From a virus (Duplodnaviria > Caudoviricetes): 64,000 bases of DNA. Positions 2,421 through 60,681 of the stretch are shown here, piece by piece. Positions within the stretch are counted from its first letter, which is position 1; each line of letters starts with the position of its first letter. The position numbers and the translations under genes were made by a program. The stretch lies in IMG/VR virus record IMGVR_UViG_3300005973_000002; one strand, 5' to 3'. Below the pieces are notes generated by a model. That model was not told the DNA's origin. It searched no databases and saw only the letters and a program-made list of their open reading frames with translations.

Positions 2421-5400
2421 TATTTATTTTTCTTATTGGTAGGGCTTATTTCATCTGCATATTGCCTGAGCAAATAAGCGACTCGCTCTATTTCTTCAGC
2501 ATAATTTGAAAGAGCTTCAAAGTCTTCTTCTTTGCTTTTCATCTCTCCAGCAAGAAAAAGTAATTCCTGGATACACTCTGATATGTTATCCACTTCTTTA
2601 AAGAGGCCGTTCTTGACTTCTTTATGGAGGAAGAATTTTGGAATCCACACAAAGGAACCAGTTGCGAGTGTGACTTTTACTCTAGTGTTGCTTTCATCTG
2701 TAACAAGAACAGCTTCGCCAAAATCTGACAAATCAAGACAAATACGTGTTTTATTTTCATGGAAACAGGGAATATCTTTATGTTGCCGCAATGTAAAAAC
2801 ACGTCCTATGAATGGTTTAAGATAAGGTTCATCTCTCTTCTTAGCAGGCATCCTAAATCCCAAAAAAAGCAATCAACAACGTTTGTTGACCATTGCTTAA
2901 ATATCCTGTGTTTTTACTGACAAAGAGGAAAAATTCTAATGCATCCAAAACCAAAAACTTATTTTCGTCTTAAGTGACAACGATTTACACTTGTCAGCTT
3001 GAATATAGATTCTTCTACCTCCCCAATCCATAAGCCACAATTCAAAGTTGTGATAACAGTGTTTATCGAGCAATGTGAGATATCGACCAACCGGCACGAA
3101 TACGTGGTCATTTGACCCAGAATGCAAAAATCCCCAGGCCCAAGCACCATCATCTTTGACTTGGTGAGTTACAAGTCCCAACTTTACGTGGAACCATACC
3201 CAAATTTTAAATAACCACTGTCGCATTATATTAGTTTTCACGCATATCATATTCGGCATTGTCGCACATGGACACACGTGCCTCAACATCAAAATGTGGG
3301 CTATAAATACGACGTCCACGGTACGTGAATTTTTCACGGACTTCATGCTCCATTGCAACCTTGCAAGCCTTCCAAGCTGTTTCTACGATTTCTGTGATAG
3401 TTGAATATGGCGACAAATACCACTTGCGACAATGCTGTGGGATGGGACCAGCCTCAGGATTCTCAACATCGATGTCCATGAAAACCCATTGAAGAAGAAA
3501 CCCGTCCCCCTTTTCCATGAGACGAAGCTCCCAACCCATAAATTGGATATTCTTTAAGATTATCTGAACTTCGTCAATACTCTTTCGTCGTTGAACTATG
3601 CTTGCCTCAAAAAATTTCGCTATAATGGTTGATAATGCTAGCGCCACGCTTGGCAAAATATTGCCGAATTTTAATATAAACCTCAGCGAGGTTATCATTG
3701 GTTGAGTTTAGTCCACCTCTCGAATCCAACCCATCGCTGATTTCAACCCACTCAACCGTAGAATCGTCAGGGTTTGGGATGCATTCTTCAGTGGAATAAA
3801 ATCCAGAAACATAAAGCCTGTCTGAACAGCCCACAACATGAACAATAACCTCTGTCGTGTCATAATCACCACCGGGTTGGGTAGAAGCAACCTTTTTGAC
3901 CTTGCTGATCTTGCTAAGCTCGTCGATAACCTCACTTGTCTTCCAGTAATACACAGTATCTCCTAAGGTATTCTTTAGTTAAGATCCTATTCTTAACAAG
4001 AAAATGCTCAAAATTTAAAGCAGAAGTAAAATAAACACCGTCATTGTAAATGACTCGTACCCAATTTGTAGCACCTAATTCAGATGCGCCAAGGTACATT
4101 ACCCAAGGCTGTCCTTCTATGGTTATGACGTTCGTAAATTTGCTTCTGATCTCACCTAACTTGCCAGGCGATGGTTCTTTAACCAAGGTAAACAATCTAC
4201 CTTGACCCATGTCGCCGAAGTGGCCGGTCATCTGATACAACTTTCCAGGCTTTAGGACATTGGTAATTTCACCAATAACAAAATCATCAATTTTACCAGA
4301 TGAGTGACTCACAGTAATTTACTCACACCAACTTGATGTCATAGATAGACAACTTTCCACCAGCAATTGGGATATCAATCAATTCAGTCTTGTCGGTCTT
4401 AATTCCAAGTGGCAAACGTTCATCTTTATCGGTTGGGATGTGGATTTTATCCTCAAGTGGGTGTTTGGTAACAATCATGGTTTTGTCTCTAGAACCTTGC
4501 ATGTCGTATCCGGCAAACATGCCAAACACATAATAGAAAGGATTCGGCACTGTAACTTTGTATCGAGAATCGTTTTCCCGAGCTTCCTTCCATGAATCGG
4601 CCACGAGCGATTCAAAGAAGTATTTTGGCATATAACGATATAGTCTCTGCCCATTCCATCCGGGACCGACGGGACCACTTGTTACTGTGTGCGGAAACCC
4701 AGGATTGTAACTAGGATCCATTTTCTGGACTTCCTTGAGTTTACGAACCTGCAAAGGCCCCTCGTAGGACAGTTCAGGATCTTCATGTTCAAACTTTACC
4801 CAATACTTCTGACCATAACCATTACGACGCTTAATCATAGCAAGCGTTGCGGGTTCACTGTGATCTTCCTGAGCTTCCGCAGAAATTGAAGTATCGTTGA
4901 CCACAGTGAAGTTTGCATAGTTGAAATCAGCAAGCTTTACCCAGAAACGTCCATAATTGTTTCTGTTTCCTTTGGCTTTAACCAAAGCTTGATCTGTAGT
5001 TTCGATAATTTTGAGCGTTACACTCGAAAATTCCTTAAGGCCCTTTCGAACATAAATGCGATCGACTTCAAGTTTTGTTCCAGCTGGAAGTGTTCTCGAA
5101 TAGGAATCAAGCTCGTTTTGCCAGCTATAACTGGTATTTCGACCATCGGCAAGTGCGACATCACTGTTGCGATGTTCAAGATAAAGCTCGAACGTCCAGT
5201 CTTTTTCGACTTTAAGCTCAGAGCCAAGTTCGGGAATAAATGCCTTCATGTCAAGACTCCAGGTATTTCTCTAGTTCAACCAGAACCTTGTTGGCAATTT
5301 CTTCTGCTGAATCATCTTCAACTTCATCAGCCAACGTAAGCTCATAGAAAACATCATCCCCTCCATGATCAAGGGTGATGTTATACTTTTCCTCAAGAGA

Positions 5401-32581: not shown

Positions 32582-32751
32582 TTTGGCGGTTAATGGGATT
32601 GATACCCACTTTGTGCCGGTCATCCTCCCCCGAGCGTATGTGGCACCATTCATCGGGATCTTAGGGACCTCCACGTCTGGAAAAAATCAGCCGTACAATG
32701 AGCTACTAAAGCACTCTGATATTTTTCACGAACCGTAGTGTAACCGCCAAA
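32582..32751 (-). ncRNA. Unidentified structured RNA closed by an 11-bp helix
   Basis: TTTGGCGGTTA/TAACCGCCAAA perfect inverted repeat, with internal GTGCC/GGCAC and GTGGG-TATCAAT-CCCAT. It fills a 200-nt intergenic gap. Confidence 0.5.
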
Positions 32752-32770
32752 GACTACTATATGCTAACAG

Positions 32771-33196
32771 CTAAGCAACATATACTAAACCATAATATTT
32801 GCCGACAGTTCTCTTGAACTTCCATTCGCCAAGCAAAACTCCATAAGTGCAGGCAGACTTTTGAAGAGCATGGAGAAAATCGGAATCACGAATATAAAAC
32901 AACTGTTTCGTTTCTGTATGTTCCAGAATTAACTGAGTGGTGGAATTGCAACTAATAAATCGTTCAACTTTGAAAGCGGCTTTGAATGGAGAATTATCTT
33001 TCCAGGTGACATTTAGATTATTATATCTTTTTCTGTTGACATAGTCAAAGTAACTAACGACGGAAACGTTCTTACCGCACGTCCACGGGACTCCCTTTTG
33101 GGTCCATGGGATTTGATAATCTTCACTTTTTTTATTCATTTGTTTCGAGCTGCCCCCTAACCATCCTATCTTTTCGACCTTTATATTTTCGGTCAT
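32771..33196 (-). CDS. Hypothetical protein, W-K-x-N-x-PFKA family (copy 1 of 3)
   Basis: WKDNSPFKAAF...GEWKF is shared with 36627-37019 and 37012-37422. Confidence 0.7.
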   Translation of the reverse strand: MTENIKVEKIGWLGGSSKQMNKKSEDYQIPWTQKGVPWTCGKNVSVVSYFDYVNRKRYNNLNVTWKDNSPFKAAFKVERFISCNSTTQLILEHTETKQLFYIRDSDFLHALQKSACTYGVLLGEWKFKRTVGKYYGLVYVA

Positions 33197-34022
33197 AGGA
33201 TTCTAACTGACGCAAATCCAAATTTGCATCCTTGCTTTTCATTGTTCCACCGCTCAGAAACAATTCAATCATTCTATCCTTTGTAAGAATTTTGGTTGTT
33301 TTGTCATCTTTCGAGGGACCCCATCCAAGCCTTGCCAAGAAATTAAGCATTGCATCAGGATCATATCCACTGTCAATATACAATTGAAATGTTGAAGCTT
33401 GTTCTCTTTTTGAGAGTTTTTTTCCCTGATGACGCAAAAGTCCAACGTGACTATATTTTGGCAAAACGCCGCCAAGGAGGTCATACAACAAAACCTGCTT
33501 TGCTGTATTTGTAATGTGGTCCACGCCTCGAATTATATGATTGATGTCCATTTCAATATCATCAACTACAGAAGCAAAATGATAAGTGGGACTACCGTCA
33601 GATTTGATCAATGTTAGATTATCAAACCCCCGAACATTGTCCGCCCGAATGGGAATGTTGCCAGCAATATCATCAACCCAATAACTTCTGGAAAGAAAAT
33701 CACCAACAAGATTTAAATGAACTCGCTTACCATCTCGAACGGCTTTGCCACTGTCTACCAGAAACGACACGGCAGCATCATAATGCTCCATTCTTTTACT
33801 CTGGTAGTCTAAACCATCCCAATCAAGCCCAAGCCACTCAAGGCTTTTCAAAAATTGGTCAGCCCATCTCTGCTCTGACCTTTCAAGATCGGTGTCATCA
33901 ATCCTAACAAAAAACTTACCACCAGAAGCTCTGGCGGCAAGCCAATTGAAATAAGCAGTTCTCATTGTACCCAAATGAGTAGGGCCTGTAGGTGAAGGTG
34001 CGATTCTAGTAAAAAACTTCAT
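33132..34022 (-). CDS. GluRS/GluQ-RS-like class I catalytic domain lacking the anticodon-binding domain
   Basis: TRIAPSPTGPTHLG (HIGH), RIDDTDLERS, PTYHFASVVDD, HIIRGVDH, KKLSKR (KMSKS), LNFLARLGW. It ends at about 296 aa, where the anticodon domain would begin. Confidence 0.9.
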   Translation of the reverse strand: MKFFTRIAPSPTGPTHLGTMRTAYFNWLAARASGGKFFVRIDDTDLERSEQRWADQFLKSLEWLGLDWDGLDYQSKRMEHYDAAVSFLVDSGKAVRDGKRVHLNLVGDFLSRSYWVDDIAGNIPIRADNVRGFDNLTLIKSDGSPTYHFASVVDDIEMDINHIIRGVDHITNTAKQVLLYDLLGGVLPKYSHVGLLRHQGKKLSKREQASTFQLYIDSGYDPDAMLNFLARLGWGPSKDDKTTKILTKDRMIELFLSGGTMKSKDANLDLRQLESYDRKYKGRKDRMVRGQLETNE

Positions 34023-35308
34023 ATTGCGCCACTTTGTCCAAAAAATGTCCAAGCTACATTTTCCCCGGAGAGTTTTGGTTCGCCTTCGTCGAAGGTATTT
34101 CTAATAGGCAACTCATGAACCTCTGCTACAACAGAGCAATGAATGGCTTGTGCATGATCAATAGCTACATCTAGACTATCACAAGGCCCTTGAAAATTTA
34201 AACCTTCGTAAGTATGCTCAAATACAAGGCAAAATAACATTATACCATCTTCAGATGGCAGAAATCTTCTTCTGTCATCCAGCATTCTCTGTCCTTAAAA
34301 AGGACCGTTGCTCCCAAATAATCATTTGGAAAATATATTTTTCCCCACTTGCCATACTTTTGGCCAACATACTTTGGAGAGTTGCAACTGTTTTTGATGG
34401 CCAAAACATACCATATCATTTTGAAAGATCAACAGGAATGCGAACCTTACGGAGATAGTCAGCAATTTGCTGAATGGCGTGTTCAACAACGCCTTCGGAC
34501 GGATTTGTGATCATATCCATCCTGAAGTGTTCTCCTGGGCCCTGAACACCCCAACTGCAAAGCATGAAAACATCATCGTCTTCCATAACGAATGAAATTC
34601 TACCGTGATTGGACTGCGGAAAATCAAATCCTTGATAGTAGACGATCATCTCTCCCTCGCCAATTTCAACATCACTATATTGCCTTGTTTCAGCAACACA
34701 TGAATATGTCCAAGAAAGACCTTGGCGGGCAAGATGTTTACATGCGATACCAATATATTCACATGTTTTATTATGATTCACGTTTTTCTCCAAACAACTG
34801 ATCATAATAAACAAACCCAATGAGTTCTTGTTTATCCTTTTCAAATTTGCCGCAATCCTGTTCCCATTTTTCCTTTAGCTCAATGTAATCTTCGTAAGCT
34901 TTATCTGATCGACCAGTAGGACCATAATGCAAATTTGGGACTTTTCCTTCATTATTATCTTTAAGTTTTTTATTTATAATACCTCTGCCGTTGAAGGGGA
35001 AATAATCTGTATGCAGCCCCATGTGCCCTTGCCATAAAGCATGTGTAGTAATTAAGCGAATTTTATCATCGTCTGTCAGTTTATAGACGTTGTATTTACG
35101 ATACCAGCCAAAATCATATTCTGTATCAATATCATCAGGGTCTTCGGCTACTGATACAAATTCTTCAAGCAAATCAAAATAGCATATTTCATTTTCATGT
35201 AACAAAACTCCACTAAGTGGTCCATCCCAATAATCCAAATGCCAGAGAATTTGCACGTTTTCAAGTTGTTTCATTTTTTTTGCTTTCCAATTTGTTTCAT
35301 CTTTTTAG

Positions 35309-35383
35309 CGAGACCTGTGGGATTTGAACCCACATCACTCCGGGTTAAAGCCGGCCGCATTACCAATTTTCTGCCAAGGTCCC
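35309..35383 (-). tRNA. tRNA with anticodon TTA (ochre-suppressor type; Gln/Glu-like loop)
   Basis: GGGACCT/AGGTCTC acceptor, G73, anticodon stem CCGG/CCGG, loop CT-TTA-AC (anticodon 35346-35348), T arm GTGGG-TTCAAAT-CCCAC. Confidence 0.85.
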
Positions 35384-35387
35384 ATTT

Positions 35388-35637
35388 GTGGCCGCCCCAG
35401 GAGTCGAACCTGGCTGTCCCACGACTGACGACCAAACTGTCCTATCTGCTTTGACGGGTCCTTCCCCCGTTTCTATGGCCACTTGAACTAACAACATTTC
35501 ATAATCTCATGGAAGCCACACACTTCCAGCAGGAATTGAACCTGCGCCGGGAACACTTGCCACTGTCGCCGAGCCAACTACTAGTTGTTATGTACGTCAT
35601 ATCGCCGTGCGGCAAAAACAGATAGGAACAGAACTTG
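35388..35637 (-). ncRNA. Unidentified structured RNA with two T-loop hairpins (YrlA/tRNA-like modules)
   Basis: A long-range helix of about 20 bp (35613-35637 with 35433-35453); GCAGG-TTCAATT-CCTGC stacked on TGGAAGT/GCTTCCA; CCAGG-TTCGACT-CCTGG; GTGGCC/GGCCAC. Confidence 0.6.
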
Positions 35638-35641
35638 TATG

Positions 35642-35998
35642 CTAACTTGTTATTTTTTTGTAACCCCTTCCTGCTACTTTCAAGTTTGCGCAAAGTTTAG
35701 CAGTTGCTTCACTTGGCTCGATTGTCAAGGCTGTGTACTGATTGATATCAGGCTCATAGAAAAGTGAATGCCTTAGTCCCTGGCTTTCGGTCAAGCAAAC
35801 AAATGCCTTCAATGCCGCTTCGTTTTTAACTCCCAAAACTACAATGGTGTTTGAATTAGTATACCACTTTCGCTCCTCTTCGGGGAAGTCGTGTGTAAAC
35901 TGATCCTTGGCATGAATGCTTTGTGCGATTTGATAGCCAGGCGAAATGTCCTGGCGAACCAATACATACATTTTCATTGTTGGTTGACTTTGCATCAT
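35642..35998 (-). CDS. Peptidyl-tRNA hydrolase 2 (PTH2)-like protein
   Basis: KMYVLVRQDISPGYQIAQSIHA, TIVVLGV, FYEPD, TALTIEP, LCANL. Confidence 0.75.
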   Translation of the reverse strand: MMQSQPTMKMYVLVRQDISPGYQIAQSIHAKDQFTHDFPEEERKWYTNSNTIVVLGVKNEAALKAFVCLTESQGLRHSLFYEPDINQYTALTIEPSEATAKLCANLKVAGRGYKKITS

Positions 35999-37810: not shown

Positions 37811-38383
37811 TCATTTTTTTCGCTTGTTGTTTTCTTTCAGCATGTTGATAAAGGTTAGCCCTTGTTCCCTCGCATCATCAATTGCCACATGAGTATGAGG
37901 CATATTTTTAGGAAACCACCGTTTTGGCCAAAAGCGTTTGCTTGTTTTCTTGTAACCTGTTTGTCTCATTGCCATCACATAAGTTCGTACGTCTACACAA
38001 GAATGACTAAAAAGAGAATGACCAGTAAAATGCTTCATATACCAGTACATAAAAAGAAAATCAAAGCCGGATGGCATACAAACCATCACAGGTTTATATG
38101 TGCTTCCACATAATCTTTTTACCCATTTATCAAATGCCTTAAAGGCATCTTTAGGTTTCTGAAGATTTCTCCTGTGAGCATTCCACGCATCTGGAAATTG
38201 CTTCCACCATTCCATGGTGGAAGCATCTGGCTGGGCACCGGGAAGCAACTCTAGGTTTGCTTCAAAAAAATCTAATTCTTCCCCATCTTCGGTAAAAGCA
38301 ACAACACCAAAGCTGAGCAATGAATTGATTGCAGGCAATGGACCATCGGTTTCAATGTCCGTGCTAAAATATAATTCTTTCAT
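37811..38383 (-). CDS. DEDDh 3'-5' exo(ribo)nuclease (Rv2179c-like)
   Basis: STDIETDG, SGFDFLF, VDVRTY, HTHVAIDDAREQ. Confidence 0.85.
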   Translation of the reverse strand: MKELYFSTDIETDGPLPAINSLLSFGVVAFTEDGEELDFFEANLELLPGAQPDASTMEWWKQFPDAWNAHRRNLQKPKDAFKAFDKWVKRLCGSTYKPVMVCMPSGFDFLFMYWYMKHFTGHSLFSHSCVDVRTYVMAMRQTGYKKTSKRFWPKRWFPKNMPHTHVAIDDAREQGLTFINMLKENNKRKK

Positions 38384-38671
38384 TTGATTATCTGTAACAG
38401 GATCTTTGTACGATAACGCAAACATCCGAACCTGGCACATTTACAAAACCAGTTCCTTCTGCGTCGACTACTGTAAAAAATCCATTTGCTTCTTGTGAAA
38501 CAGAATCAACCAGCCAAGAACCATAGTCAGCCACCACGACATCGCCCTTTCGAAGGGCGCTTATTGTGATATATTGCTTTCCAAGCTTTGCAACTAGTTG
38601 TTCTAATGTAAGTCCACTCATTTATTTCTCCTACAGTAGCAGAATAGCAATGCTAGATAAACCTGTTTAGG

Positions 38672-40818: not shown

Positions 40819-40829
40819 CTATTATTTAT

Positions 40830-41181
40830 TGGACCCGATCGGAATTGAACCGATGTCCTCAAGATCGCCTAAAAAAACTTCTACGTTACCTAGTTTGATT
40901 TTCAGATTACCGGTCCGAGGTATCAGACAACCAACCGGGTTCTTTCATTTGAAATCTTGATCAGACAGCCAATAGAAATCTAACTCTAGTCTAATCCAGT
41001 CCTAATAACGACGCCTTATAGAATGCAAGGACACTCAAGCTATAAGACGGCTCTCATCAAGCAGCGAGAGCAAGAGGTGCATTGTCTGCATTTATAATCG
41101 TTTATTGGATTTAAGTGGTTCTAAACACCCACCGTAACGCCATTTTTTCTTCTTACCCCAAGTCGAAACCAGTACGGGCCC
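40830..41181 (-). ncRNA. ssrA: tmRNA (352 nt), tag peptide ADNAPLALAA
   Basis: 5' GGGCCCGTACTGGTTTCGAC; acceptor with G3.U70; ATAAAT then GCA GAC AAT GCA CCT CTT GCT CTC GCT GCT TGA (41057-41089); 3' GGAC-ATCGG-TTCAATT-CCGAT-CGGGTCC-A. Confidence 0.95.
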
Positions 41182-52288: not shown

Positions 52289-54196
52289 CTACACCGGATA
52301 CTCTCGTATTTGAATAGATTTTGGCCACTCGACAGGATCATCACCTTTTTTACTGTTCAACTTCGACATGGTCAAGCCTGTCAATATCGGCTTAGAACCG
52401 AGCTGTTTTACAAATACTTTAGTTGATGTACCATTGACGCATTTCACCACGTTGTCTGCCCAAATCCAATCAAAAGCTCGGGCTCCTGAACCGCTTTCCC
52501 CGCCCACAACAATCCAATCAAGGTCATTGACCCAAGGAGAAAAGTCAACGGGTGCTAAGGCTGGTTCGTAACTTGCCCAGCGTACTTTTGAAGTAGTTCT
52601 CAACAGAATTGGGATTCTTTTATCTGCTGTTGACTGGTCTTCACAAGACACTCCGAGCCAAACATTGTTCAGCGGCCACGTTTTGTCAACTTTATCAGTT
52701 TCTTTTCGACCGGTAAGCTTTCTAGCCTCATTGGCACAATATTCAGCTGGTGATGGGACTTGCAAGGCAACCCAATCAAACCAATCCTTTGCTCTTTCTG
52801 GTCTTTTTGTTAATACCTGAAAGGTATGCTTTTGTGCAGCTGCCATTACGCCAAAGACAGCAGCAATGTATTCATTAGCGACGCCATGATGAAAGAGATC
52901 ACTCATTGAATTAACGAACACCATTCTTGGCTTAGTCCAACGAATGGGGTCTGCAAGCTTGTCTGGTACAAGCATAATATTGCCATTCCACCTTGGACCC
53001 TTTTTGCCGACGGCAATTAACCCATGGTAAGGCTCTCCAGGCCCAGAAAACCTATGTGCGACCGTTTCCGCATAGCAATTATGCACAGCCATTCCTAATG
53101 CTATGAATGTACCAGAGGTGGTTTGTATATCTACCAAATTGCGTTTACCAATTCGTCTAATCCCATCAAATTTTATTGATTGTTTTGATGGAAATCTTCG
53201 TCCATGAAAGTCAACCGTCTTTCTTTGTAATGCAGGTTGAATTGTAGATAAAAATTGAATTTTATCAGAAATGGTTCCCAGGAGTATTTCACTTTTGTTT
53301 ACTTGCGTAGAATATTGTTCATATTTGGATTTAAATCCCAAATCAGCAATTGCACGATGAGCAATGTTCAATAAATTGTTTTCTTTGGTCTGATTAAATC
53401 TTAGATTTTTGCCACTATAACATCCATCCATATCCAAAAAACCAGCAAGAAACCCAGCTTTCCAATTAAAGTCACTTTCTTCCCGTATTATAATATTCCT
53501 AATTTTTAGGAGATTGTCCATAATCCGAGTTTCAATTTTCAACATGGGAAGGTTGGCTTCCCTGTAAAGAAATGCATCACCTCCATTAAAGGAGCGAATA
53601 TTAATATTTTTACAGCCAAATTCGATCAATGCTTTTTTTAAGCGTTCAAGAATTGGTTTATCTGTTGCCAAAACTGCCACACGACAATAAGATTGAAGAG
53701 TGCCATTTTTCCCAGAACCTTCAATTCTAATTGTGTCGTCGCCACCAACAACTCCAGCAATATATCCTGCCAAATAGGGTTTAGAATTTATATCTGGCAA
53801 CCACTTTGGAAACCCAATACTAGATATTTTTGTGTTTAAATTAATCTTTTCAGCTTTTCTCCAATATGGTCTATGTGGAGATAAAAACAAATGGTCAACA
53901 CTTGATACTATCGTATTAGAACCAAAATATAATTCTACCGCTTCTTTCCTGGTTTTCCAAGTTTTAACAACCGTAGCCTCTTCAAAAACTCTATTTTGTC
54001 CAACTTTAGGATTGTCAGTAAAAGCAATAACTTTATCACCCTCTTTAATCTCGCCAATAGGCACCCAACTCATATCGGACATTAAAACAGGCGTATCTGG
54101 GCCCAGGCAATTTTCGCAACCCTTGGAAACTCTAGAACAGCCTCTCAAAGGATTCCATGTGGCATCAGTCCACTGTATTCCGGTCTTGTTTCCCAT
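52289..54196 (-). CDS. Gp37/Gp68 (DUF5131, radical-SAM-like) protein containing an intein
   Basis: Exteins IQWTDATWNPLRGCSRVSKGCEN and CYAE..., FVNSMSDLFH, HTFQVLTKRPER, NVWLGVS, SYEPAL, WIVVGGESG, FVKQLG; the mature protein is 291 aa. Confidence 0.92.
   Translation of the reverse strand: MGNKTGIQWTDATWNPLRGCSRVSKGCENCLGPDTPVLMSDMSWVPIGEIKEGDKVIAFTDNPKVGQNRVFEEATVVKTWKTRKEAVELYFGSNTIVSSVDHLFLSPHRPYWRKAEKINLNTKISSIGFPKWLPDINSKPYLAGYIAGVVGGDDTIRIEGSGKNGTLQSYCRVAVLATDKPILERLKKALIEFGCKNINIRSFNGGDAFLYREANLPMLKIETRIMDNLLKIRNIIIREESDFNWKAGFLAGFLDMDGCYSGKNLRFNQTKENNLLNIAHRAIADLGFKSKYEQYSTQVNKSEILLGTISDKIQFLSTIQPALQRKTVDFHGRRFPSKQSIKFDGIRRIGKRNLVDIQTTSGTFIALGMAVHNCYAETVAHRFSGPGEPYHGLIAVGKKGPRWNGNIMLVPDKLADPIRWTKPRMVFVNSMSDLFHHGVANEYIAAVFGVMAAAQKHTFQVLTKRPERAKDWFDWVALQVPSPAEYCANEARKLTGRKETDKVDKTWPLNNVWLGVSCEDQSTADKRIPILLRTTSKVRWASYEPALAPVDFSPWVNDLDWIVVGGESGSGARAFDWIWADNVVKCVNGTSTKVFVKQLGSKPILTGLTMSKLNSKKGDDPVEWPKSIQIREYPV
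53078..54109 (-). mobile_element. Intein (344 aa) with a LAGLIDADG homing endonuclease domain
   Basis: Starts CLGPDTPVLM, has VSSVDHLFL and ends LVDIQTTSGTFIALGMAVHN, with Cys at +1. Endonuclease motifs are YIAGVVGGDD and FLAGFLDMDG. Confidence 0.92.
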
Positions 54197-56806: not shown

Positions 56807-56926
56807 CTCCAGAGGAGGGATTCGAACCCCCGACTAATCAGCTATCTTTGAAACCATCGGATTCGCATTGCAACAAGCTTTATCCGATTCCCACAACCGA
56901 TCGCTCTACCATTGAGCTACTCTAGA
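56807..56926 (-). tRNA. tRNA-Asn-type body with a 48-nt insertion in the anticodon loop
   Basis: TCTAGAG/CTCTGGA, G73, GCTC/GAGC D arm, ATCGG/CTGAT stem, GGGGG-TTCGAAT-CCCTC. The loop is 55 nt instead of 7. Confidence 0.82.
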
Positions 56927-57045: not shown

Positions 57046-58452
57046 CTATAAACATGGATTAACAATAATATCTTCAAGTCTTTCAACCATAACCGCTGGG
57101 TCTGTAGAAATTAGATGAAAGGTAGCACAATCATCAAAATCTGTGTTGTTAACTGATGCCCCAAAGACTGTCAATGATTCTCCGTGCGTAAACGAATTAC
57201 ACATTTCCATTTCACGTACTTCTGACAAACCTCTTGTAGAACTTCTATATGTTTGCCCTCTTTCATCAGTAAACATTATCATAATGCGAATTGAACCTTC
57301 CCGCCAAGATAAACCTCTTCTGGTGGGTGAGAGCATATCAGCTATACCATCACCATTTGAATCAATACCGTGTTCAATTTCACCAGTTGCGCTTTCATAA
57401 ACTGCATCCCAAGTTGGCTCCTGTGCACCACCATCAGCATCCAAACTAGATAGCCTACTATTAAAGCTAGTGAAATCAGAAAAATCAAGTTCTACAAATG
57501 CTCTTCTGTCTAATGCGCCTCGGCCAGAAATAAGAACCAATGCAAACCTAAATTCGGGATTTCCTGCATACAGTGCTGAAAAAGTTGTTGTTGCTTCACG
57601 AACAGCTGCAATTGTAGAAGACATTGAACCAGAAATATCGATCAAATAAAGAATGTCAAAACCATTTGGTTCTATTGTTATACACACCCCATCTTCATAA
57701 GCACCATCAATGCATCCATCACAATCATCGTCGACCCTATTACAGGCAAGCAAACCAACTTCTGGCACCGGCGGAATTTCACCATCGCATTCAGACCAAG
57801 TTCCTCCGGTTTCACAAACTTGACGTCCTTTTCGACAAGGTGAGATAATCGAATCTATATTAGGCCCAGAATAGCACCATTGTGATAAAGGCCCTGTGGA
57901 ATCACTATTTTCATCTACCTCACCATCACAATCATTGTCAATGTCATCACAATCTTCTGGAACGCAATTTAAAAAAGTACAAGAGCCTTCAATGCATGCA
58001 AATCCTCTTGGACACATATCATCAAATTCACAAATATCTACACAATAGCCATTGCCTGTAATGGAATCAGTGATACATTCTTGCTCACCAGAACTTTCTT
58101 CATTGTTGCAGTCTTGAGTATTTTCGCATTCAGTAAAACGATCTGATCTGACGCAAGAACCCATACGGCAGTCTGCACCTTCACCACATGGTGGCCCGTT
58201 ACCACATCTGCAAGAGCCATCTATGCATTGGTCAGAATCCATAATCGGACAAAAATTTCCACAACCCCCGCAATTTCTGAAATCAGTTCTTAGTCTAGCA
58301 AGATCATCACTTTCACACGGGGGTCCAGCATCCGTGTCTGTTATAGACATCAATCCAGAATCAGAGAGTGGCGGTATTAGTGGTATTCCTTCTTGGTTGG
58401 AACACGCAAACAAACCAATGCAAAACACACTTAAAACCGCTACTTTTTTCAT
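57046..58452 (-). CDS. Lipoprotein with myxobacterial-type Cys-rich repeats and a C-terminal vWA domain
   Basis: Lipobox GLFAC; NCGGCGNFC; EDCDDIDNDCDGEVDE and CNRVDDDCDGCID repeats; MIDAS LIDISGSMS; FTDERG. Confidence 0.85.
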   Translation of the reverse strand: MKKVAVLSVFCIGLFACSNQEGIPLIPPLSDSGLMSITDTDAGPPCESDDLARLRTDFRNCGGCGNFCPIMDSDQCIDGSCRCGNGPPCGEGADCRMGSCVRSDRFTECENTQDCNNEESSGEQECITDSITGNGYCVDICEFDDMCPRGFACIEGSCTFLNCVPEDCDDIDNDCDGEVDENSDSTGPLSQWCYSGPNIDSIISPCRKGRQVCETGGTWSECDGEIPPVPEVGLLACNRVDDDCDGCIDGAYEDGVCITIEPNGFDILYLIDISGSMSSTIAAVREATTTFSALYAGNPEFRFALVLISGRGALDRRAFVELDFSDFTSFNSRLSSLDADGGAQEPTWDAVYESATGEIEHGIDSNGDGIADMLSPTRRGLSWREGSIRIMIMFTDERGQTYRSSTRGLSEVREMEMCNSFTHGESLTVFGASVNNTDFDDCATFHLISTDPAVMVERLEDIIVNPCL

Positions 58453-59471: not shown

Positions 59472-59552
59472 ACAAAGAACTCGGATTCGAACCGAGAATA
59501 CCTTTACAGGCGGCGCAAGTTGCGAAGTGTATACCATTTCCACCATTCTTTG
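59472..59552 (-). tRNA. Type II tRNA-like RNA with a collapsed anticodon arm
   Basis: Perfect CAAAGAA/TTCTTTG acceptor, GGTGGAAATGGTATACAC D region, GCCT-GTAA-AGGT variable arm, CTCGG-TTCGAAT-CCGAG. The anticodon arm is only CGCA-ACT-TGCG. Confidence 0.7.
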
Positions 59553-60609: not shown

Positions 60610-60681
60610 TGGGTTGCCTGGGATTCAAACCCAGAACCAACATTTTAAGAGACTGTTGCACTACCATTGTAGTGACCACCC
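60610..60681 (-). pseudogene. Degenerate tRNA-Lys(CTT)
   Basis: Loop CT-CTT-AA; T-loop TTTGAAT (C56 lost); C at position 8; mismatches in the acceptor and anticodon stems. Confidence 0.65.

Follow-up and report, generated by a model that had tools for sequence, protein, structure and literature searches.

The window analysed here is a stretch of 64,000 nucleotides (nt) of giant-phage DNA (Caudoviricetes; IMG/VR record IMGVR_UViG_3300005973_000002). Every gene in it lies on the minus strand and the guanine plus cytosine content is about 40%. The DNA originates from hypersaline-lake metagenomes, and a protein identical to the PTH2-type peptidyl-tRNA hydrolase of the window is found in the protein index on an assembly of up to 461 kb. 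The PTH2 gene is followed by a stretch of 250 nt (35388-35637) and then by a suppressor tRNA gene. A first-pass annotation had described this stretch as one 250-nt RNA with two T-loop modules. That description is correct in large part. The structured RNA between the two genes is real and falls in no Rfam family, but the stretch holds two separable minus-strand RNAs, a core of about 195 nt and an optional minihelix of 44 nt. The core is a member of an undescribed family of structured RNAs of about 190-210 nt, which is fixed to the 3' end of PTH2. From the PTH2 gene downstream, the locus contains the following features.

35642..35998, minus strand: PTH2-type peptidyl-tRNA hydrolase gene (Pfam PF01981, E = 1.3e-8)
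35437..35631, minus strand: core RNA, about 195 nt from the first to the last base pair of its closing helix P1 (covariance model R1 and fold statistics)
35390..35433, minus strand: tRNA-like minihelix without anticodon arm, 44 nt, with discriminator A at 35389
35397-35413, minus strand: T-arm of the minihelix, the second T-arm of the stretch, with stem CCAGG/CCUGG and loop UUCGACU
35309..35383, minus strand: suppressor tRNA with anticodon UUA (ARAGORN and Rfam tRNA, 54.4 bits)

The minus strand of the 250-nt stretch has a minimum free energy (MFE) of -93.7 kcal/mol (z = -3.1), and none of 200 shuffled sequences was as stable. No Rfam family, YrlA, tRNA and tmRNA included, reaches its threshold on 35388-35637. 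At E<=10 only noise was returned, namely a mascRNA-like match of 23.5 bits and fragments of tmRNA. The tmRNA models RF00023 and RF04321 scored 12 and 7 bits against a threshold of 47 bits, and the tmRNA is encoded by a separate gene at 40827-41181 (127 bits; ARAGORN and Rfam), as had been recognised in the first-pass annotation. Neither ARAGORN nor the Rfam tRNA model (RF00005) made a call in the 250-nt stretch, and the core possesses no anticodon loop. ROOL, GOLLD, HEARO and the rest of Rfam 15 gave no covariance-model match on any core.

Relatives were sought by a PTH2 protein search of metagenome assemblies, which gave 22 homologues whose flanking contigs were then inspected. The core was found directly 3' of PTH2 where the homologue is 59-78% identical to the PTH2 of the window. 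One further member, L040 (on the same contig as L053), came from a sequence-pattern scan. The family comprises ten distinct members, namely the window and the loci L004, L009, L040, L014, L012, L018, L013, L007 and L008, whose PTH2 homologues span 59-100% identity. Its carriers are a clade of uncultivated giant phages. In 10 of 10 lineages the gap between the PTH2 stop codon and P1 is 6-10 nt; in the window the stop codon is UAG and lies 10 nt upstream of P1. Core lengths range from 191 to 211 nt with differences that are not in steps of three, and this, together with the compensatory substitutions, indicates an RNA and not a short coding gene.

The covariance model built from the alignment, R1, found exactly one copy per locus in 10 loci, with scores of 148-176 bits. 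It found no second copy in the window, no match at E<=1 in another structured intergenic RNA of the window (32582-32751), which is unrelated, and no match in the 98-kb record of L001 or in mycobacteriophage loci. Core-like sequence is absent at the more distant PTH2 loci L001, L015 and L016. L011 has the minihelix alone after PTH2 and no core; its order of parts is tmRNA, PTH2, minihelix and one tRNA(UUA). Searches by sequence added little: blastn with the locus as query was negative against 50,697 phage records, exact T-arm strings were found only in ordinary tRNAs, and a scan with a minihelix pattern returned nothing new. A strict pattern of the two core hairpins S and P6 retrieved nothing in IMG/VR or the JGI metagenomes, and a looser one gave 59 stretches, among which L040 is the sole true member.

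For the structural alignment the ten sequences were segmented by hand. Canonical pairs occupy 456 of 468 pair cells (97%), and 37 of the 51 pair positions are compensatory. When the partner strand was shifted by 1-3 nt as a control, pairing fell to 36-45%. In the model-fitted alignment 93% of the cells are paired and 31 of 43 pairs have changed on both sides; none of 500 shuffles matched it in any of five measures, and the slid controls were far lower. Single-sequence MFE folds of L014, L012 and L007 give the same helices without comparative input. The core RNA and its fold are almost certainly real. In the window its parts are as follows, from 5' to 3'.

35613..35631, minus strand: 5' strand of P1, with CUG, internal-loop UU and then 14 nt; pairs with 35437-35453
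35592..35610, minus strand: P2 hairpin in the D-arm position, 2 nt after P1, with a stem of 5 base pairs (bp) and a 9-nt loop
35584..35590, minus strand: 5' strand of P3 in the anticodon-arm position; pairs with 35489-35495
35546..35583, minus strand: variable part of the inner domain, with lineage-specific hairpins in three layouts (types A, B and C)
35529..35545, minus strand: inner T-arm, with 5-bp stem GCAGG/CCUGC and loop UUCAAUU
35510..35528, minus strand: loop-closed acceptor-like stem, 6 bp in the window, stacked on the inner T-arm
35489..35509, minus strand: 14-nt linker with conserved GAG...GAA, then the 3' strand of P3
35472..35486, minus strand: S hairpin, with 2 covarying pairs and an 11-nt conserved loop
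35454..35470, minus strand: P6 hairpin in the T-arm position, with 5-bp stem and 7-nt loop GGMAGRR
35437..35453, minus strand: 3' strand of P1, partner of 35613-35631

A long-range helix of about 20 bp had been proposed earlier. The helix, P1, is present in the MFE fold and covaries in nine other phages, but its length in the window is 16 bp, interrupted by one bulge and by an internal loop of 2 nt opposite 1 nt. Across the members, 3 bp at the base and a further 13-14 bp, together 16-17 bp, flank this conserved internal loop, in which UU faces A in the window. The base of P1, CUG-UU-CC / GG-A-CAG, is conserved in sequence, and both sides have changed in 11 of the 16 pairs of the helix in the model-fitted alignment. 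P2 has the loop GYnAnAUGA with invariant AUGA, and 3 of its 5 stem pairs are compensatory. It is joined by a linker of 1-2 nt to P3, which has 5-9 bp in all members, differs in sequence among them and is compensatory at all 7 common positions. The closing pairs of S change from CC/GG to UC/GA or CU/AG. P6 is 100% paired with 3 compensatory pairs and is separated by 0 nt from the 3' strand of P1.

The outer four-way junction has the connectivity and the linker lengths of a tRNA cloverleaf. The closing helix is followed by 2 nt, a 'D' hairpin, 1-2 nt and a long arm, then by a 'variable-arm' hairpin (S), a 5-bp/7-nt hairpin (P6), 0 nt and the closing helix again. The core departs from tRNA in having a P1 over twice the length of an acceptor stem and, on P6, a loop other than a T-loop. 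The invariant nucleotides lie at the base of P1 and in the loops of P2, S and P6, while the tRNA-like inner part varies. A pairing of AUGA in the P2 loop with UCAU in the S loop was considered and dropped, as both are invariant and the U-to-C change of the window would break it.

Within the inner domain, a T-arm directly followed by a closed stem had been noted in the first-pass annotation. This arrangement stands, with 0 nt between the two and covariation in both helices, but the closed stem of the window has 6 bp and not 7. In every member a closed stem of 5-8 bp with unrelated sequence lies 0 nt from the T-arm hairpin. The stem of the inner T-arm is 100% paired with 3 compensatory pairs. 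Its loop is UUCRANN, on a G-C-closed stem, in 7 of 10 members, and GGCRGUG, resembling the P6 loop, in L013, L007 and L008. A T-loop is therefore not carried by these three lineages, which also tells against a single RNA defined by two T-loop modules.

The inner domain had been likened to the bacterial YrlA Y RNAs, and the geometry bears this out in part. In YrlA as in the core, a terminal stem is formed by the 5' and 3' ends and an internal domain contains a T-arm followed by a loop-closed acceptor-like stem (AS), and both RNAs lie among phage tRNA and translation genes. T-arm and AS in YrlA order are present in 7 of 10 members. The full order V-T-AS-D, in which a V hairpin precedes the T-arm and the closed stem is followed by a D-like hairpin, can be drawn in three members, L014, L012 and L040; the D-like hairpin (GCUC/GAGU) occurs after AS only there, and its loop is without GG. 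The hallmarks of YrlA are a covariance model, GNCGAA near the 5' end, a Ro60 gene within about 4 kb, and conserved T and D stem-loops around the closed stem in the order V-T-AS-D (PMC4201824). The YrlA model (RF02553; threshold 69 bits) gave no match at E<=10 in window 35200-35800 and none at E<=1 in the cores of eight relatives. The motif GNCGAAN0-1G was not found near the 5' end of the core, where the conserved strand reads CUCUG-UU-CC. No Ro60/TROVE gene was found among ten open reading frames (ORFs) tested in the window, which included every ORF of at least 300 amino acids (aa) in the 64 kb, or, in nine relatives, among the genes called up to 3 kb away. The most conserved part of the core, the four-way junction with P2, S and P6, has no counterpart in YrlA. 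Also unlike YrlA, the tRNA-like part is the least conserved one, with the T-loop lost in three lineages, and the core is fixed to the 3' end of PTH2. The core is not a member of YrlA, and a Y-RNA-like mode of action is possible.

A true YrlA-type Y RNA, with its Ro60/Rsr orthologue encoded outside the window in the genome of about 460 kb, is very unlikely. The long terminal stem with a conserved bulged region and the internal module of T-arm and closed stem would suit such an RNA, as would the V-T-AS-D order of the three members. Some jumbo phages encode TROVE proteins (PMC7824862). Four of the ten members contain GGUCCGAG or GGCCCGAG, similar to the vertebrate Ro-binding GGUCCGA, but this string is not conserved (GUUCAAG in the window) and is situated in the 3' junction strand and not in the terminal stem. 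Besides the missing model match, 5' motif and TROVE gene, Mycobacterium phage IkeLoa speaks against this identity. It has a Ro60 gene and a YrlA-like RNA 36 kb from its PTH2-linked RNAs, a separation which indicates that the PTH2-linked RNAs there are something other than YrlA-like RNA. As a candidate for Ro60, the 468-aa VWA protein encoded at 57046-58452 was rejected, being of the MopE/VWA type.

The second T-arm of the stretch is also present, but it does not belong to a 3' domain of the core. It sits in a self-contained 44-nt element with a covarying 7-bp acceptor stem, a 3-bp hairpin with a 4-base loop (GUGG in the window) and the T-arm. This minihelix occurs together with the core in the window, L004 and L040 and without it in L011, and seven lineages (L007, L008, L009, L012, L013, L014 and L018) have the core without the minihelix. 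In its four lineages each of the 15 pairs is kept (60 of 60 pair cells canonical); the acceptor stem shows 2 compensatory pairs, the stem of the small hairpin and the T-arm are invariant, and all four lineages have the discriminator A. The minihelix folds alone at -21.5 kcal/mol, and in L040 ACCA is encoded after the stem.

The mascRNA-menRNA family (RF01684) matched the minihelix below threshold (23.5 against 42.5 bits, E = 0.023). Elements of the mascRNA/MALAT1 type are, like the minihelix, cloverleafs without anticodon arm placed directly after a longer structured RNA. By this placement, an RNase P cut at the 5' end of the minihelix would form the 3' end of the upstream RNA. The mascRNA belongs to the eukaryotic nucleus and has no common ancestry with the phage minihelix, so the likeness is one of architecture only. 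Unlike mascRNA, the minihelix is optional, and a real tRNA stands in its place in L014 and L018.

The first-pass annotation had further proposed two mutually exclusive folds, in which a strand of the 3' domain is captured by the long-range helix. This proposal did not survive. The available pairing, of GUGGCC in the S loop with the 3'-terminal GGCCAC of the minihelix, is confined to the window and costs about 15 kcal/mol relative to the MFE. Folding of L004 and L040 did not return it, and the seven lineages which lack the minihelix cannot form it. The presence of two T-arm sequences could also hint at decayed tRNA genes, but compensatory changes are found in every helix across 10 lineages, and pseudogenes would not keep such changes. 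Decayed tRNA genes or a two-fold switch is already contradicted by the comparative data, and such an origin of the stretch is extremely improbable.

The S loop deserves separate consideration. Its 11 nt are closed by two covarying pairs and contain a 6-nt palindrome (35476-35481 in the window), which reads UGAUCA in 8 members, UGGUCA in L008 and UGGCCA in the window. The central bases thus change together, and the L008 form is self-complementary through G-U pairs. As adjacent central bases cannot pair within one molecule, the pattern fits pairing between two copies of the RNA. From these palindrome changes, dimerisation through the S loop is suggestive and no more. The variant sequences are only two, and accidental retention of a palindrome is estimated at about 1 in 9; the S loop might alternatively contact the invariant AUGA in the loop of P2 by base pairing, or be the binding site of a dimeric protein. 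An RNA-only homo-oligomer assembled by kissing palindromic S loops, similar to the phage-associated ROOL and GOLLD RNAs, has very little probability as the function of the core, which shows no Rfam relation to either.

The surroundings of the core are constant on one side only. In L007, L008, L009 and L013 conservation stops at the 3' strand of P1 and the ribosome-binding site of the next gene follows, and in L014 and L018 the suppressor tRNA lies 3-4 nt downstream of the core. P1 is followed by UU(U) and then by a tRNA (L014 and L018), the minihelix (window, L004 and L040) or a ribosome-binding site. A U-rich tail followed by a tRNA-type RNase P site is thus found in five lineages. No convincing promoter or terminator belonging to the core itself was found. 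After the core of L012, a decayed look-alike of the suppressor tRNA is positioned at 3571-3660 and is not called as a tRNA by ARAGORN. Two different tRNA(UUA) genes about 500 nt apart are present in L004 (3614-3688 and 4097-4170), L018 (1798-1873 and 2296-2367) and L040 (3878-3953 and 4375-4448). A contig from a soil metatranscriptome (run X25) is exact over L040 3883-3960, covering the suppressor tRNA and downstream sequence; past its adapter it begins 5 nt inside the tRNA. A second contig, of unknown library type, contains part of the L040 core with two changes that are compatible with P3 as wobbles. Neither contig says anything on expression of the core, and no RNA library was listed as carrying the stretch of the window.

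These surroundings could mean that the core is a cis-acting element of the PTH2 operon mRNA, a structure at the 3' end or between cistrons that would serve as a block to 3' exonucleases, as a site of RNase III and RNase P processing that separates PTH2 from the tRNA or gene after it, or as a binding site of PTH2 for feedback. This is the chief alternative to the reading favoured below, and we regard it as unlikely. It agrees with the position of the core, always 6-10 nt past the PTH2 stop codon, and with the absence of a promoter or terminator of its own. The downstream neighbour varies among tRNA, minihelix and different ORFs, which makes PTH2 the constant partner. A gene for an Rv2179c-like 3'-5' exoribonuclease is moreover conserved 2-3 kb upstream. 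However, a stabiliser or a processing stalk needs only a stable helix, while in the core four loops and a junction strand remained invariant as the stems diverged fully, pointing to specific recognition. L011, with PTH2 and the minihelix and no core, also argues against a cis role.

A comparable arrangement of genes is found in phages of Mycobacterium. A tblastn search with the PTH2 protein gave 221 phage records, 206 of them from Mycobacterium cluster C, with 41-42% identity among the hits listed. In cluster C, 180-300 nt of unannotated sequence separate PTH2 from an amber suppressor tRNA(CUA) downstream. This spacer is conserved across 203 records, with a second sequence variant at 83-85% identity, and its fold has z = -3.6. 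It is composed of two to four tandem tRNA-like units of 56-77 nt with encoded CCA, which have 7-bp acceptor stems and T-arms or 5-bp/7-nt non-T hairpins and no normal anticodon arm. The variants are separated by compensatory changes. Example loci are L078:5364-5613, from phage IkeLoa, and L091-L095. In L001, PTH2 and a tRNA(CUA) lie 3.3 kb apart.

In one type of cluster C unit, the closing helix is accompanied by a variable hairpin, and a non-T hairpin of 5 bp and 7 nt is stacked on its 3' strand in the manner of P6 and P1 in the core. Another type is a tRNA mimic without anticodon arm, as is the minihelix. The cluster C units are short, tandem and provided with 7-bp acceptor stems and CCA, whereas the core is a single RNA of about 200 nt closed by a helix of 16-17 bp; the suppressor anticodon is CUA (amber) in cluster C and UUA in the window. 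As model R1 does not match the cluster C units, they are analogous rather than demonstrably homologous to the core. The order of PTH2, non-decoding tRNA mimic or mimics, and suppressor tRNA recurs in unrelated phages.

The tRNA-shaped and non-decoding character of these parts raises the question of an anti-defence decoy, in which core and minihelix would soak up toxins or nucleases that modify the acceptor end of tRNAs or cleave them, and PTH2 would clear damaged tRNAs or peptidyl-tRNAs. Mycobacteriophage hosts are rich in tRNA-targeting toxins, and it is in mycobacteriophages that tandem CCA-ending tRNA mimics adjoin PTH2. The minihelix has a complete acceptor stem, a D-like hairpin and a T-arm, with ACCA in L040, and the variable inner domain of the core suggests fast evolution as in conflict systems. 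On the other hand, the core has no free acceptor end and its most conserved parts are those which are not tRNA-like. No recognised defence or counter-defence gene adjoins it. A decoy role is accordingly held to be quite unlikely.

The reading which we favour, tentatively and at somewhat less than an even chance, is that the core is a processed tRNA mimic or scaffold which acts in trans in a phage module of translation and rescue. The core would be transcribed with the PTH2 operon and from no promoter of its own. Cleavage by RNase P where the minihelix or tRNA begins would leave it with a 3' tail of 2-4 U, and in loci without a following tRNA RNase III may cut P1. Once freed, the core would be a stable RNA and would serve in trans as a non-decoding mimic or scaffold. 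Its partner, held by the invariant loops of the outer part, would be a phage protein or another copy of the RNA contacted via the palindrome, and the tRNA-like module inside would bind a factor of the translation and rescue machinery that recognises tRNAs. With PTH2, tmRNA and suppressor tRNA, the phage would in this way manipulate that machinery.

For this tRNA mimic or scaffold we count the constant spacing of 6-10 nt from PTH2, the tRNA or minihelix downstream and the absence of a promoter or terminator. The UUCRANN loop, the 0-nt junction of T-arm and closed stem and the linkers of 2, 1-2 and 0 nt are counted as well. So are the order of PTH2, tRNA-like RNA and suppressor in more than 200 cluster C phages and the presence of a tRNA(CUA) within 3.3 kb of PTH2 in L001.

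Several points weigh on the other side. No partner protein was found, and the neighbouring ORFs gave no informative family or fold match. L015, L016 and L011 dispense with the core altogether. As three lineages have no T-loop, recognition of the tRNA elbow in its classical form cannot be a function common to all members. The U tail in place of NCCA and the closing helix of 16-17 bp mean that the core cannot be a substrate of CCA-end enzymes. The constant position in the PTH2 3' untranslated region fits a purely cis role equally well.

In a more specific form of action in trans, the core could share a transcript with PTH2 and the suppressor tRNA and work as a tRNA-shaped dimer that regulates ribosome rescue or the decoding of stop codons. 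By binding or sequestering a component of termination or rescue, such as a release factor, PTH2 or the suppressor tRNA itself, it would set the level of read-through. We consider such a regulator rather improbable. If it were true, PTH2, tRNA mimic and suppressor tRNA would constitute a widespread and unrecognised phage module, mycobacteriophages included.

Giant phages encode tRNAs, tmRNA, synthetases and PTH, and the non-coding RNAs which partner these are almost unstudied. The core is comparable in complexity to a small ribozyme or a riboswitch and is physically tied to PTH2 and the suppressor tRNA. More than 200 cultivated phages of Mycobacterium smegmatis have the same order with different tRNA mimics, so that the role of such RNAs is directly testable at the bench. 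If the palindromic loop drives dimerisation, the core joins the small set of self-assembling natural RNAs.

Among the RNAs of other phages, RNA C and RNA D (species 1 and species 2), encoded in the tRNA gene cluster of phage T4, are comparable to the proposed core. They too are stable RNAs other than tRNAs, with no known function, and are transcribed and processed together with the tRNAs of the phage. They are shorter than the core and have no relation to it in sequence or structure, and no link between them and a PTH gene is known. Short likenesses in sequence to 4.5S/SRP RNA, to 5S rRNA and to the cores of the hammerhead and hairpin ribozymes were dropped, with no structural match or Rfam hit for any of them.

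Two proteins encoded near the core, of 153 and 167 aa, gave no informative Pfam, PHROG or Atlas match, and the 167-aa protein, which lies downstream, has no relatives among viral contigs. The window contains other genes related to translation and RNA on the minus strand. These are a class II aminoacyl-tRNA synthetase of the Asp/Lys/Asn type (3-1412), a GluRS protein with the catalytic domain only (33132-34052) and the Rv2179c-like 3'-5' exoribonuclease (37811-38440), which is found 2-3 kb upstream of PTH2 in most relatives. Three further minus-strand tRNA calls were noted. The first, at 56807-56926 (Rfam, 50.5 bits; missed by ARAGORN), has its anticodon loop interrupted by about 48-51 inserted nt and is probably an intron-containing tRNA. 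The second, at 59472-59552, is a tRNA-Ser with the unusual anticodon ACU (ARAGORN), and the third, at 60610-60681, is a borderline Rfam tRNA (30 bits against a threshold of 29 bits) missed by ARAGORN. A 635-aa DUF5131 protein encoded on the minus strand at 52289-54196 is matched in two stretches around a LAGLIDADG-like segment, and may contain an intein or a homing-endonuclease insertion.

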